Shown: positions 36,124-40,222 of the stretch, piece after piece
Layout: each line of letters opens with the position of its first letter
Numbering within the stretch: position 1 is the stretch's first letter
Assembly: GCA_963812135.1 (NCBI GenBank)
Contig: CAWETU010000001.1
Coordinates: 1,952,001-2,016,000 of the forward strand
Direction of reading: 5' to 3'
Length of the DNA stretch: 64,000 nucleotides
DNA from: Vulcanimicrobiota bacterium
Lineage (GTDB): Bacteria; Vulcanimicrobiota; Vulcanimicrobiia; Eremiobacterales; Eremiobacteraceae
Translations under genes and position numbers: made by a program
Notes under the pieces: model-generated
Seen by the model: only the letters and a program-made list of their open reading frames with translations
The model's database searches: none
What the model was told of the DNA's origin: nothing

Positions 36124-37071
36124 ATGAAAAGCTTTGCGATCGTTCTGCTTGCAGCAATCGTCCTTTCCCAAACTTCCGCCCAAAGCCGCGCGGCCACGAG
36201 CCCTTGGAGCTCGACTGCCACGATGGGTTGGACTCAGTATGCGATGGCGGGCGCGCGCGTCGGCCATAAGATCTACCTGATCGGCGACCGCCAAGCGCTG
36301 CACATCTACGACATCACCGCCAACTCGTGGTCGACCGGCGCCGCGGTGCCGAACAACCAATACGGGCCGATCGTCGCAACCGGCGGGAAGGTCTACGTCA
36401 TCGGCGGCGCGACCGGCCCACGCATCACGAGCGATGTCCGGGCGTACGATCCCACCGCGAACAGCTGGACGAAGGTCGCGAGTCTGCCCTCAGCGCGCGG
36501 CGCGGGCGCTGCGGCGGTGCTGAGCGGCAAGATCCACCTCGTCGGCGGCCGCGCGTATCAAGGCGCGACGCTTGTCGATGTCACCGATCATCTCGTCTAC
36601 GACCCTGCCACAAACGCATGGAGCAAACTCGCGCCCATGCTGACCGCGCGCGATCAACTCGCGCTCGTTCCAGACCCGACGGGCGGCAAACTCTACGCCA
36701 TCGGCGGCTGGAACACGACCACCGTGAACCCCTCTGGCGGCAACGAAGCGTATAACGCCGCGACCGACACGTGGACGAAGATGCCGAAGATGCCGACGCC
36801 GCGCATGAACATCGGCGCCGCATTGCTCAACGGTTACATCTACGCCGCCGGCGGCGCGACGAACCGCGTGATGTACTCGGGCGTGGAAGCGTACAACGTG
36901 CAATCAGGCAAATGGACCGTCACCGCGCCGCTGCCGGCCGCGCGTCCGAAGGCCAGCGCGATCGCGTACAACGGCACGCTCTATGTGACCGGCGGGAACG
37001 TCTGTCAGGACGGCGCGTGCTATGGCACCAATAAGTTCTGGACGTACACGCCCGTGGCGCCCAACCCATAG
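36124..37071 (+). CDS. Secreted Kelch-repeat beta-propeller protein
   Basis: Signal peptide; about six repeats of [IVL]Y.IGG...YDP..NSW. Confidence 0.92.
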   Translation: MKSFAIVLLAAIVLSQTSAQSRAATSPWSSTATMGWTQYAMAGARVGHKIYLIGDRQALHIYDITANSWSTGAAVPNNQYGPIVATGGKVYVIGGATGPRITSDVRAYDPTANSWTKVASLPSARGAGAAAVLSGKIHLVGGRAYQGATLVDVTDHLVYDPATNAWSKLAPMLTARDQLALVPDPTGGKLYAIGGWNTTTVNPSGGNEAYNAATDTWTKMPKMPTPRMNIGAALLNGYIYAAGGATNRVMYSGVEAYNVQSGKWTVTAPLPAARPKASAIAYNGTLYVTGGNVCQDGACYGTNKFWTYTPVAPNP

Positions 37072-37118
37072 AATCGCCGGAGAGGTTACGCGCCGGACGA
37101 GCCTAAGTCTGCGCAACG

Positions 37119-37763
37119 ATGCCCCGCTTGTCCATCGGTTTTTGGTTCTGCGCGGCGATCGCGATCATCGCCGCCGCTCTCGCCAATCCATGCGTTGAGT
37201 TCGCTTCAAATGCGGGCTGGTTCGGGCATGGAGTCTTCACGGACCGTAGCAACGTCGACGTCATCCCGACCCTTGTCGTTGGGATCGCGCTCCCCGCTTT
37301 GCGTTTCTTGCGACGGATCACCGAACTGCTATTCCCCGCGGGCGCCGGACGCGTGCAAACGTGGCTCCGACTTGCCAGCCGCGTTCTGCGCGTGCGGAAC
37401 GTGCTGTCGTTCGTGCCGGCCGCCTTCGGCATGCAGCTGCTCGTGCTGTTCTCGATGGAGTCCCTTGAACAACTGGCGGTGCGCGGGCACCTCCTAGGCG
37501 GCATGCTCTGGCTCGGCGGCCCAATCGCGGTAGGTCTGTTGGTTCACGCGCTCTTCTGCGTCGCGACGGCGTTTGCGCTCGCCAGGATCATGCAAGGGCT
37601 CGAACACGGCGCGGTGCGCGTCGCACGGCTGATCTGCAGCGCATTGCTGTCCGCCCGCGACATTCCGCCGATCATCTTGCGCCGGGATCTGACGACCAGC
37701 CTTCCGATATCGCCGCTGCGCTGCAGCACCGGCGAACGCGCGCCTCCGTCCTTCGCCCGCTAA
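37119..37763 (+). CDS. Hypothetical membrane protein with C-terminal RAPP motif (candidate arrest peptide)
   Basis: About four TM segments; ends PLRCSTGERAPPSFAR*. Confidence 0.75.
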   Translation: MPRLSIGFWFCAAIAIIAAALANPCVEFASNAGWFGHGVFTDRSNVDVIPTLVVGIALPALRFLRRITELLFPAGAGRVQTWLRLASRVLRVRNVLSFVPAAFGMQLLVLFSMESLEQLAVRGHLLGGMLWLGGPIAVGLLVHALFCVATAFALARIMQGLEHGAVRVARLICSALLSARDIPPIILRRDLTTSLPISPLRCSTGERAPPSFAR

Positions 37764-37805
37764 CCAACTCTTCGACCTCACGTCCGGACGGAGCACGTAC
37801 TCACA

Positions 37806-39050
37806 GTGCGTCAACCCAGAACGCTGGGGCGCAGGACGCTCGCCATCATCGTGGCGGGCGTCGCGCTCATCCTCATCGCCGGCATCGTCATCATGTGGCG
37901 ATCGGGCAAACACTATGCCGGCAATATCGCCGCCAGGCTGACGATGGGCGATCAGCCCGTGGACATCTTGCTGATCGCAAACAACGGGCGCGATCTGAAG
38001 GCGAGCGATCCGCTAGGTCTTGGATCGGCGGCCGGCCAGGCCGACGTCATCCTGCTTGCGCGCGTCGACCCGAAGGCGCACGCGATCTACGCGATCACCA
38101 TTCCGCGAGACGCGTTGGTCGCACAGCCGCAATGGCACAACTCCGTGCCGAAGATCAAGACGCTATTCTTCATGGGAGATCAAGAGACGCCGCCGCGCGG
38201 TCCGCAGTACCTTTCGCAAGCCGTAGCCGCGTTGACTGGGTTACCGGTGGATGGGTACATCGCCGCGAATTTCGCCGGGTTCAAGGAGGCGGTCGATTTC
38301 GCGGGCGGGCTGACCGTGAACGTCAAGCAACGTATCTACGATCCGCAATTCAGCCATGCAGATTTCCGGCCGGGCATCCAGCACATGAACGGCGCCCAGG
38401 CGCTGGCGTTCATCCGCGTGCGTCAAAATCAAGCCGGCAACTCCTACCGAGTCAACGACTACGAGCGCATGCAGGCGGAGGTCGAGGTGCTCGGGCTGTT
38501 GCGCAACAAGCTGCTCGACCCGCTACGAGCGTCGACGCTGTTGCCGGCATTCGTCGAGCACATGAAACACGACGTCGCCACGAGCTTCCCGCACGACCAA
38601 CTCGTCCGCATCGGCGTCGCGATGGCCGGCGCACCAGTATTCCAGGTGCCGCTAGGGTCTGTTGGAGACTCGATGGTGTTGGCGCGGGCGAGCGTGCCCG
38701 GCATCAATCATTCCGGCACGATCGACGAGGCGGAGTACGTCGTCCTCGATCCGTCAGAAGTGCAACGGCATCTCGCGGAGTTCGGATCGCGCTCGTCGAG
38801 CACGGGATTGCCGCCCTTCGCCGATCCCGCCTCGATGCACATCGACCTGCACGGTTCGAAACACCTCGCCCTGCATTTCGAGCATCTCGGTTTCGTGCAC
38901 GTCCGCGTCGTCGGAGGAGCGACCGGAGAAGAGCGTGTCGTCTACCCCAGCGCGCAGCCTGCGACCGGCTGGCAAGTCGCGCGCGCGATGGGCGTCGGGA
39001 ACGTGTACGTCCAGCCTGGCGACGGCACCGTTGTCACGGTCTACGAATAG
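37806..39050 (+). CDS. LCP (LytR-CpsA-Psr) family glycopolymer transferase
   Basis: N-terminal TM anchor, ADVILLAR, ITIPRD, NFAGFKEAVD..GGL, MNGAQALAFIRVR, DYERMQ. Confidence 0.88.
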   Translation: MRQPRTLGRRTLAIIVAGVALILIAGIVIMWRSGKHYAGNIAARLTMGDQPVDILLIANNGRDLKASDPLGLGSAAGQADVILLARVDPKAHAIYAITIPRDALVAQPQWHNSVPKIKTLFFMGDQETPPRGPQYLSQAVAALTGLPVDGYIAANFAGFKEAVDFAGGLTVNVKQRIYDPQFSHADFRPGIQHMNGAQALAFIRVRQNQAGNSYRVNDYERMQAEVEVLGLLRNKLLDPLRASTLLPAFVEHMKHDVATSFPHDQLVRIGVAMAGAPVFQVPLGSVGDSMVLARASVPGINHSGTIDEAEYVVLDPSEVQRHLAEFGSRSSSTGLPPFADPASMHIDLHGSKHLALHFEHLGFVHVRVVGGATGEERVVYPSAQPATGWQVARAMGVGNVYVQPGDGTVVTVYE

Positions 39051-39133: not shown

Positions 39134-40222
39134 ATGCGCGTCGCTCGCATCTTCGGCATCGACATCTACATCGATCTGAGCTGGTTCATCATCTTCGTGC
39201 TCGTCGCGTGGATGCTCAGCAGCGACGTCGGGCCGCTCCGGACGGCTGGGCTGTCCGCCGGCGAGCGGTGGGCATTCGGAGTCGTCACGTCGCTGCTCTT
39301 CTTCGGGAGCGTGCTCGCACACGAGCTTGCGCATTCCGTCGTCGCGCGCATGCGCGGATTGCCGGTCACGCGCATCACGCTGTTCATCTTCGGCGGCATC
39401 TCGCAGATCGGTGGCGCGTTTGACAGCGCGAACGCTGAGGGGTGGATCGCGTTCGTCGGGCCTCTCACGAGCGCCGTTCTCTCCGGGCTCTTCTACATCG
39501 TCGCGCAAGCGCTGGGCGCGCACTCGGCGTTTGGCCTGGCTGCCGGCTACCTCGGCTGGGCCAACGGAGCGCTGGCGATCTTCAACCTGCTGCCCGCCTA
39601 CCCGCTCGACGGCGGCAAGGTATTGCACTCGCTCATCTGGCGCGCGACCGGCGATCGCCGGCGTGCGACGCGCGTCGCAGCCGGCATCGGTCAGGCCATC
39701 GCGCTCCTCATGATCGCGCTCGGCATCTTCATGTCGTTCACCGTCAGCTTCTTCAGCGGATTGTGGTTTGCGCTGATCGGCTGGTTCCTGTACCAAGCCG
39801 GACGCTCGGAGGCGTCGACGTCCGAACTCGCCGCAGCACTGAAGGGGCAGACCGCACGCTCGATCGCGGTGACACCGCCTCCGGCGCTGTCGCCGGGCGA
39901 TACCGCCGGCACGGCGATGGCAGCACTCCTTCGCAGCGGGCAGCGTGCGGCGCCGGTGGTCGCCGATGGACGGCTCGTGGGCATCATCACCTTGACGGAT
40001 CTGGCTCGAGCTCACGCGGGCTCAGCTGACGCGCCGGTGTCCGCGTTGATGACGCCGATCGACAAGGTCAAGAGCGTCGCGCCTTCGGGGGACGCGATGG
40101 ACGCGCTGAGTCTGCTCGCGCAGACCGGTTATCACCAGCTCCCGGTCATCGACGATGCGGGGACGCTCGCCGGATTCATCACGCGCGAGGGATTGTTGCA
40201 GCGTCTTGCGCTAGCAGGGTAA
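39134..40222 (+). CDS. Site-2 protease (M50) with C-terminal CBS pair
   Basis: HELAH, FNLLPAYPLDGG, two CBS domains. Confidence 0.95.
   Translation: MRVARIFGIDIYIDLSWFIIFVLVAWMLSSDVGPLRTAGLSAGERWAFGVVTSLLFFGSVLAHELAHSVVARMRGLPVTRITLFIFGGISQIGGAFDSANAEGWIAFVGPLTSAVLSGLFYIVAQALGAHSAFGLAAGYLGWANGALAIFNLLPAYPLDGGKVLHSLIWRATGDRRRATRVAAGIGQAIALLMIALGIFMSFTVSFFSGLWFALIGWFLYQAGRSEASTSELAAALKGQTARSIAVTPPPALSPGDTAGTAMAALLRSGQRAAPVVADGRLVGIITLTDLARAHAGSADAPVSALMTPIDKVKSVAPSGDAMDALSLLAQTGYHQLPVIDDAGTLAGFITREGLLQRLALAG

Follow-up and report, generated by a model that had tools for sequence, protein, structure and literature searches.

Can a ribosome that stalls near the end of one gene open the next gene of the same messenger for translation? 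The question is raised by a locus in a 64,000-nucleotide (nt) stretch of DNA from an uncultured Vulcanimicrobiota bacterium of soil (assembly GCA_963812135.1, contig CAWETU010000001.1, positions 1,952,001 to 2,016,000 of the forward strand; the whole stretch is called the window below). There, a gene for a membrane protein of 214 amino acids (aa) with a RAPP motif at its C-terminus, here called the leader, is followed by a gene for an LCP (LytR-CpsA-Psr) protein, and the last codons of the leader are complementary to the LCP gene's Shine-Dalgarno (SD) sequence. The original prediction, made from the letters of the window, took the locus for a ribosome-arrest switch controlling LCP translation. 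Comparison of the locus with its relatives makes it likely that the leader is a RAPP-type arrest peptide fused to a four-helix membrane sensor domain, and that it serves as a cis-acting leader for the LCP gene.

Results

A terminal RAPP motif is conserved in leaders of LCP genes

The two genes and the parts of the leader end are as follows.

37119..37763, + strand: leader (proposed sensor) gene, encoding the 214-aa membrane protein with the C-terminal RAPP; stop codon TAA at 37761-37763.
37713..37748, + strand: putative arrest segment PLRCSTGE-RAPP, residues 199-210; the family consensus is xPxLCRIGERAPP.
37743..37748, + strand: codons for Pro209 (CCT) and Pro210 (CCG), predicted by analogy with CruR to occupy the P site and the A site, respectively, of a stalled ribosome.
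37749..37763, + strand: tail of four variable codons (SFAR) and TAA; its sequence varies among homologs.
37806..39050, + strand: LCP gene (PF03816), the proposed regulated gene, encoding 414 aa with an N-terminal transmembrane (TM) helix.

The leader open reading frame (ORF) ends in LRCSTGERAPPSFAR, that is, LRCSTGE-RAPP-SFAR before the stop, and the RAPP core (residues 207-210) is encoded by CGC GCG CCT CCG at 37737-37748. The ORF is a real gene, with 299 homologs at E<=1e-3; the source names of the homologs belong to Candidatus Eremiobacterota (Eremiobacteraceae, Cybelea, Aquilonibacter, Vulcanimicrobiaceae). RAPP stands within the last 20 aa in 118 of the 120 leader homologs listed. Among 127 unique full-length loci, R-x-P-P is kept in 126: both prolines (P209 and P210 here) are present in all 127 and R207 in 126, the sole exception at Arg being a CAPP, while position 2 is Ala in 114 (113 of them with Arg). 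The full set of variants is RAPP (113 loci), RGPP (6), RPPP (5), RSPP (2) and CAPP (1). R[AGPS]PP was also found in the last 25 aa of 131 of 145 further representatives of 50%-identity clusters, most of the other 14 being fragments as judged by profile coverage. In an alignment of 38 members, a conserved domain is followed by a variable linker, an invariant segment of ~10 aa and a variable tail; the ~8 residues preceding RAPP are conserved, with the consensus C-R-I-G-E.

RAPP, RGPP and RSPP are reported to be arrest-competent (Fujiwara et al., EMBO J, Dec 2025, PMC12992588), and, as judged from the sequences, the variants of the leader family match those reported there as arrest-competent or depleted from proteomes. 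In CruR, as mapped by toeprinting in the same paper, the P and A sites hold the third and the fourth codon of RAPP. The class as delimited there is also marked by a stall that an Arg->Ala change abolishes and that EF-P does not relieve, and by a contribution of the tunnel segment just N-terminal of the motif. In the source genome of the window, RAPP is depleted about five-fold, with 5 occurrences against 23.4 expected from composition among 2,401 coding-like ORFs, a set chosen by a crude filter on third-codon-position G+C (GC3) and not by a gene caller; AAPP is not depleted in the same set (42 against 39.7). Three of the five RAPP occurrences lie no more than 15 aa from a C-terminus. RGPP, for its part, shows no depletion in that genome, with 11 occurrences against 15.3 expected; nine of these, in ORFs of ~540-760 aa (for example, C1:1011883-1013535), belong to an internal conserved ...YWRGPPKL... 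motif of a paralogous protein family, a context that, by its sequence, evidently tolerates RGPP.

The tail between motif and stop is exactly four codons long in 62 of 80 loci with an LCP gene downstream (LCP-type loci), and six codons long in 13 of 26 loci with a TonB-receptor-like gene downstream. In 28 of 78 LCP-type loci, the first proline of the motif (Pro1) has the rare codon CCT, which accounts for 5.4% of background Pro codons (n = 3,253), and this choice yields CCUCC. Fixed tail length and CCT at Pro1 would both fit selection at the level of RNA.

The 414-aa product of the downstream gene matches LytR_cpsA_psr (PF03816) over residues 79-236 with E 5e-30 and 105 bits against a cut-off of 24.6. 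The gene has the same orientation as the leader gene, and 42 nt separate the leader stop from the LCP start codon, GTG at 37806; in 78 LCP-type loci the median spacer is 59.5 nt. No terminator on the + strand was found between the two genes, and Rfam gave no match in 36900-38000. LCP orthologs with 64-81% identity lie directly 3' of the leader in relatives, and over the whole set an LCP gene is found within 1.8 kb downstream in 80 of 127 loci, adjacent to the leader in all except one (L013, with a Bestrophin-like gene between). A Pfam search of 124 automatically called downstream proteins gave PF03816 in 75, CarboxypepD_reg in 26 (one with a TonB Plug domain) and no family in 19, some of which are miscalled starts or contig ends; ACR_tran (resistance-nodulation-division, RND), DUF1007, Bestrophin-like and Phosphoesterase proteins are single cases. 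A TonB-receptor-like (CarboxypepD_reg) gene thus follows the leader in 26 of 127 loci. The leader-linked LCP proteins are of two types with a mutual identity of 26-30%, so the association of leader and LCP is old and does not reflect a single inherited operon.

The leader tail is predicted to pair with the SD of the next gene

Folding of the leader end and spacer with ViennaRNA gave the following elements in both the minimum-free-energy (MFE) and the centroid structure.

37742..37751, + strand: 5' arm of the stem (anti-SD), GC-CTCCGTCC.
37786..37794, + strand: 3' arm of the stem, GGACGGAGC, including the SD GGAG at 37790-37793.
37795..37811, + strand: second hairpin of 7 bp (37795-37801 with 37805-37811), enclosing the start codon GTG at 37806-37808.

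CTCCGTCC (37744-37751), within the Pro-Pro-Ser codons, is the exact reverse complement of GGACGGAG (37786-37793). GGAG at 37790-37793 is the only SD-like element before the LCP gene, with 12 nt to the GTG at 37806, and it is overlapped by a perfect palindrome, CGTCCGGACG (37781-37790). In the Boltzmann ensemble, the SD of this locus (L001) pairs with the leader tail with a probability of 0.78. The hairpin around the start codon (37795-37811) did not figure in the original prediction.

When leader ends and spacers of 24 loci were folded, the same architecture was found with differing sequences: the SD of the downstream gene is paired with codons at and immediately following Pro-Pro. Examples of such arm pairs are CCUCCGUCC/GGACGGAG, CUCCUUCC/GGAUGGAG, CCCCCUUUGC/GCAAAGGGG and CGCUCCUCA/UGAGGAGU. 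The statistics of the stem were taken from 109 loci with a usable downstream start, the tail window (from the Arg codon to the stop) being set against the 30 nt before the start codon. Cognate tail/SD duplexes had a mean energy of -20.1 kcal/mol, compared with -15.6 kcal/mol for non-cognate ones, and none of 10,000 permutations was as good. Kinship among the loci inflates such counts, and a subset of 21 loci without a common 7-mer in either arm was chosen to limit that effect; here the means were -20.0 and -14.9 kcal/mol, again with none of 20,000 permutations as good. To judge from these comparisons of sequences, the pairing of tail and SD is maintained by covariation.

The pairing also has a preferred position. 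On the side of the downstream gene its maximum lies at -11..-8 relative to the start codon (88 of 109 loci); on the leader side, across 109 loci, the 5' arm most often covers +5..+13, counted from the Pro1 codon's first base. Hence the strand that pairs with the SD falls, across the family and at 37742-37751 here, inside the predicted footprint of a stalled ribosome. Ensemble calculations gave a mean probability of SD-tail pairing of 0.61 (above 0.5 in 75 of 109 loci), with a mean of 0.69 in the TonB-like subfamily, and a mean unpaired probability of the SD in the free mRNA of 0.15 (below 0.3 in 91 of 109 loci). Compared with the other non-overlapping tiles of the last 480 nt of the ORF, the tail window was strictly the best partner of the SD in 30 of 109 loci, where 6.5 would be expected; for the 21 representatives the corresponding figures were 5 and 1.2 (binomial P ~0.005).

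These results bear out most of what had been read from the window. Its coordinates for RAPP, the complementary arms, the sole SD-like GGAG with its 12-nt spacing and the palindrome are all correct; the terminal RAPP it pointed to recurs in homologs, the anti-SD pairing persists through differing sequences in the tests of cognate against non-cognate duplexes, and LCP is the commonest identity of the gene that follows.

A modelled stalled ribosome lowers, on average, the cost of opening the SD region

Accessibility and opening energies were computed with SD positions set for each locus. With the footprint of a stalled ribosome masked, opening nt -18..+6 cost 10.3 kcal/mol on average instead of 13.3 kcal/mol, a relief of 3.0 kcal/mol; in 51 of 109 loci the relief reached 3 kcal/mol or more. 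A control ribosome placed 15 codons upstream left the cost at 13.1 kcal/mol (relief 0.17), with a relief of at least 3 kcal/mol in 3 of 109. Across loci, the energy model gives only partial backing to an opening of the SD by the stall.

The leader belongs to a lineage-specific family of predicted four-helix membrane proteins

Upstream of the arrest segment, the leader is divided into two parts.

37119..37586, + strand: conserved four-helix membrane domain, residues 1-156, delimited by the 38-member alignment, the AlphaFold2 model and the comparison of subfamilies.
37587..37712, + strand: poorly conserved cytoplasmic linker, residues 157-198 (~40 residues), with few conserved alignment columns.

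The AlphaFold2 model of the leader is a confident helical bundle (predicted local distance difference test score, pLDDT, 83.9) with helices at residues 2-31, 48-69, 75-89, 92-122 and 136-180; residues 181-214 have low pLDDT and form a disordered tail. The localisation signal at the N-terminus consists of four long hydrophobic helices, seen in both the model and the sequence. From the distribution of Arg in the sequence, we predict four TM helices with both termini inside. With this topology the invariant acidic and polar residues would sit in two outward loops, one carrying E27, N31, T41, D42 and D47 and the other E114, E117, Q118 and H124, and H143 and C147 would lie in helix 4. The invariant residues of the N-terminal domain in the 38-member alignment are E27, N31, T41, D42, D47, P50, Q106, E114, E117, Q118, W131, G133, P135 and H143. 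The two subfamilies of leaders, that preceding LCP genes and that preceding TonB-like genes, share E27, D42, E114, E117, Q106 and H143 and differ at T41, S44, D47, H124 and C147; the latter behave as would be expected of positions that tune specificity.

The family is small, with 345 representatives at E<=1e-3 among 1.84 billion protein representatives of 50% clusters. Of the 301 genomes sampled from the phylum, 117 gave a match to its profile, every one of them in three families (f1-f3) of one class, and there was no match in families f4-f21 among the Eremiobacterota genomes searched; as far as searched, the leader family therefore appears, by profile, confined to this one lineage. A Pfam search of the 214-aa leader found no family at E<=0.1. 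Membership in DUF2946, the family of the CutF and CruR leaders, was considered and is rejected on the same result. Foldseek gave no match to the leader model in the PDB at E<=0.001, and a search of the ESM Atlas with the leader returned unnamed clusters only. In a wide VIA-align search with the leader model (m4656229c98a5, 37119-37760), the best neighbour was BceAB (7tcg_A, Z 8.4, root-mean-square deviation 4.4, 144 aligned residues), followed by other FtsX-type permeases, namely YbbAP (Z 7.7), FtsEX (6.9 and 5.8), 5xu1 (5.9), LolCDE (5.7) and YtrEF (5.3), all of these scores being under the level that the tool treats as meaningful for helical bundles. A resemblance of the modelled domain to four-TM FtsX-type permeases may serve as a lead.

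Copies of the four-helix domain that lack the tail occur in one genus: L133 (G222:C1), L134 (G218:C1) and L135 (G158:C1). They stop ~15 residues past helix 4 and lack RAPP, and no gene on the same strand follows them directly.

Discussion

A model of the switch

In the switch that we propose, the free bicistronic mRNA would keep the SD of the LCP gene (GGAG, 37790-37793) paired with the leader's Pro-Pro-Ser codons (stem 37742-51/37786-94). A ribosome translating the leader would stall when Pro209 (37743-45) occupies the P site and Pro210 the A site, and peptide-bond formation would be blocked by the nascent ...CSTGERAP. The footprint of a ribosome extends roughly 12-15 nt onward. A ribosome stalled in this way would cover about +1 to +14 nt and with them the whole 5' arm, and the SD would be free, and LCP translated, for as long as the stall lasts. 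An opening of this sort follows the pattern of SecM and CutF. That the stalled footprint spans the whole 5' arm would account for the fixed four-codon tail. The duration of the stall would probably be set by the fate of the four-helix domain once it has emerged, whether its insertion, its folding or the binding of a periplasmic ligand or cation, and control of the stall time would couple LCP synthesis to an envelope signal. We infer the stall, its modulation and the nature of the signal; what was observed is the conservation of the motif, the synteny, the covarying pairing and its geometry, and the depletion of RAPP.

Several results weigh against a switch of this kind. The tail window falls short of being the best partner of the SD in 79 of 109 loci, its median rank being 3, and RNAalifold, run on 24 spacers aligned with MAFFT, found no consensus pairs; such an alignment leaves the arms out of register, and we therefore relied on the permutation tests of duplexes. 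In the window itself, the 12-nt spacing between SD and GTG is long, and the fold of 37700-37830 is not beyond chance (z-score -1.31, with 17 of 200 shuffled sequences at least as stable), so that it is conservation in relatives that lifts this stem above chance. The hairpin at 37795-37811 persists under the mask of a stalled ribosome and is independent of the RAPP stem. The modelled effect of stalling is also small here: the opening cost goes from 13.9 to 12.4 kcal/mol, compared with 12.7 kcal/mol for the control ribosome (relief 1.5 versus 1.2), and the unpaired probability of the SD from 0.06 to 0.21, compared with 0.20 for the control. With the footprint masked, the SD re-pairs with weaker alternatives. 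The modelled opening thus counts against a strong switch at this particular locus; equilibrium folding of a G+C-rich RNA may understate a kinetic effect. As to the protein, the tail-less copies suggest that the four-helix domain can have a role without arrest. Helix 4 ends ~53 residues before the stall site; by the time of the stall it would have left the tunnel, and a simple release by the force of insertion is therefore not obviously timed. Finally, any ribosome that reached the stop codon would open the stem, and plain coupling of the two genes would therefore need no arrest.

In such plain coupling, each ribosome passing the leader end would open the stem and so fix the ratio of the two proteins, and RAPP would be a motif acting at the level of the protein, for instance in docking or as a turnover tag, with no regulated arrest. 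The 5' arm does lie within the last leader codons, where a terminating ribosome opens it too; the tail-less paralogs show the four-helix domain to be a protein in its own right; and the extra opening by a stalled ribosome is small in the model of this window. A docking motif, however, would not account for the rare CCT at Pro1. The motif, moreover, admits only A, G, S or P at position 2 and keeps its Arg in 126 of 127 loci while its flanks vary, and the variants it admits are those reported as arrest-competent or proteome-depleted (PMC12992588). The five-fold depletion of RAPP, not shared by AAPP, is what one would expect if RAPP impedes translation in this organism. We regard coupling without arrest as unlikely.

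It might also be that the arrest is real and its output is something other than unmasking of the SD, such as the insertion or folding of the leader itself, a block to Rho loading or mRNA decay, LCP being affected indirectly or not at all. Consistent with this, the cassette also precedes unrelated genes (CarboxypepD_reg/TonB-like in 26 of 127 loci, and the single RND, DUF1007 and Bestrophin-like cases), the start-codon hairpin is independent of the stall, and PMC12992588 leaves open whether and how such arrests regulate downstream genes. Yet a complementarity of tail and SD that is specific to cognate pairs, with pairing at -11..-8, is hard to explain without selection for SD masking, and the pairing holds in the TonB-like subfamily as well (mean probability 0.69); an output elsewhere seems to us quite improbable. 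As for chance, a RAPP and an 8-nt complement come easily in DNA of 64% G+C rich in Arg, Ala and Pro codons: a six-frame count over ORFs of 60 aa or more gives 151 RAPP, of which 20 are near a C-terminus, and the z-score of the local fold is unremarkable. This explanation is nevertheless refuted by the conservation of motif, synteny and pairing over 127 loci in three bacterial families, and we give it next to no credence. A leader that gates LCP translation, as originally proposed, is therefore supported by the comparative data, with the reservation that the modelled opening of the SD is small for the mRNA of the window itself.

A candidate signal

What the leader might sense is a separate question. 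The acidic, His and Gln residues predicted to face outward suggest a site for a cation or another ligand. LCP enzymes act on undecaprenyl-pyrophosphate-linked polymers, and a lipid-linked precursor is therefore conceivable as the signal. One tentative reading, which we hold to be possible but doubtful, is that the four-helix domain is specialised for sensing, on the periplasmic side, an envelope cue such as a divalent cation or a lipid-linked cell-wall precursor, and that its binding or folding sets the dwell time of the RAPP arrest and so tunes the synthesis of the LCP glycopolymer ligase; the same cassette would have been re-tuned for TonB-dependent-receptor-like genes, keeping the core E27/D42/E114/E117/H143 and swapping T41/S44/D47/H124. 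If so, control of cell-wall assembly by an arrest peptide would be a first, and the sensors would form a modular, lineage-specific family.

Relation to known arrest peptides

SecM-secA, MifM-yidC2 and ApdA/ApdP share with the leader a C-terminal arrest motif (RAGP in SecM, RAPP in ApdA and ApdP). SecM, too, has few codons between its stall site and its stop. These peptides monitor the downstream-encoded machinery that pulls on them, whereas the leader has a conserved folded membrane domain in place of a secretory peptide of low conservation. LCP enzymes are not translocases, which makes direct pulling feedback unlikely. A stem that sequesters an SD and is disrupted by a stalled ribosome is described for SecM-secA, and an SD-masking stem for a secDF2 leader (PMC10987492). 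In CutF-cutO, a stem that hides the ribosome-binding site of the downstream gene is reported to be melted by the stall.

CutF-cutO of Rhodobacter capsulatus and CruR-bfrG of Bordetella pertussis are like the present locus in that an exported or membrane leader carries a C-terminal Pro-rich or RAPP stall site. Metal-binding residues of CutF and CruR face the periplasm, and their class has TonB-dependent receptors as targets, as do the 26 CarboxypepD_reg-type loci here. Unlike these DUF2946 proteins, the leader has four helices and not a signal peptide or single TM segment, has no CxxxC, and has LCP as its main target.

The closest parallel is found in PMC12992588. As reported there, RAPP and RGPP motifs are concentrated close to the C-termini of small proteins, secretory or membrane-bound, that are encoded upstream of diverse genes, and seven arrest peptides of S. 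lividans were validated, four of them with four TM segments each. SLIV_18480 and SLIV_27375, together with SLIV_33595 and SLIV_33605, resemble the leader in being four-TM proteins of less than 300 aa with RAPP or RGPP a few residues from the C-terminus. The likeness extends, in the reported data, to conserved polar, His and Cys residues in the N-terminal part, a downstream gene in the same orientation that is not of the Sec/YidC kind, and a proteome depleted of RAPP. The leader differs from these peptides in that no sequence relationship to them was seen: it matches no Pfam model and was found in one class of Eremiobacterota only. Its downstream gene is that of an LCP transferase, and its arrest is a prediction.

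The claim of novelty made with the original prediction has accordingly narrowed. Four-TM RAPP/RGPP peptides before non-Sec genes were published in Dec 2025 (PMC12992588), and this kind of switch is already known; new here are the protein family, LCP as the class of target, and the phylum. The top-30 downstream categories of that paper include TonB receptors, RND and TolC components, copper proteins, SecD and CBS proteins. LCP is absent from this top-30 table, and LCP, LytR and Eremiobacter are absent from the main text and the searchable supplements, the full lists of which may hold cases. A full-text literature search found no paper joining 'arrest peptide' with LytR-CpsA-Psr or Eremiobacter, and no arrest peptide upstream of an LCP gene was found in print in these searches. 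Two matches for translation arrest, LCP and RAPP together were discarded as unrelated, one of them (Chem Rev 2026) merely citing SecM in its references.

LCP enzymes attach wall polymers to peptidoglycan, and their post-transcriptional control is not described in the literature searched. If the proposed switch is true, RAPP arrest peptides would extend to cell-wall assembly and to an uncultured phylum. With 127 loci, a covarying SD-masking stem and a fixed four-codon tail, the leader family offers an unusually clean comparative case for regulation of a downstream gene, and its tail can be assayed without culturing the organism, in PURE systems or with reporters.

Neighbouring genes and related loci

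The LCP gene is followed by a gene at 39134-40222 for a protein with Peptidase_M50 and CBS domains. 'CBS domain-containing protein' is among the categories reported to be enriched downstream of RAPP ORFs (PMC12992588).

In two paralogous loci, L009 (G021:C38) and L018 (G014:C18), a leader with GERAPP is followed not by LCP but by a small Cys-rich ORF (...CDCPLCE...) and then by a stretch whose translation has the pattern of tRNA genes; in L009 a gene of the Phosphoesterase family lies ~300 nt downstream.

Elsewhere in the source genome, outside the window, each of two further hydrophobic ORFs lies directly upstream of a gene whose product has a CarboxypepD_reg/TonB-receptor-like N-terminus. 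One, of 212 aa, ends in ...YNRPPPSLSIA (G000:C1:752589-753227, - strand), and the other, of 98 aa, in ...ASRPPPVFAALVA (G000:C1:747714-748010, - strand). Neither matches the leader profile, and, by their sequences, they may be further Pro-rich leaders of another family.

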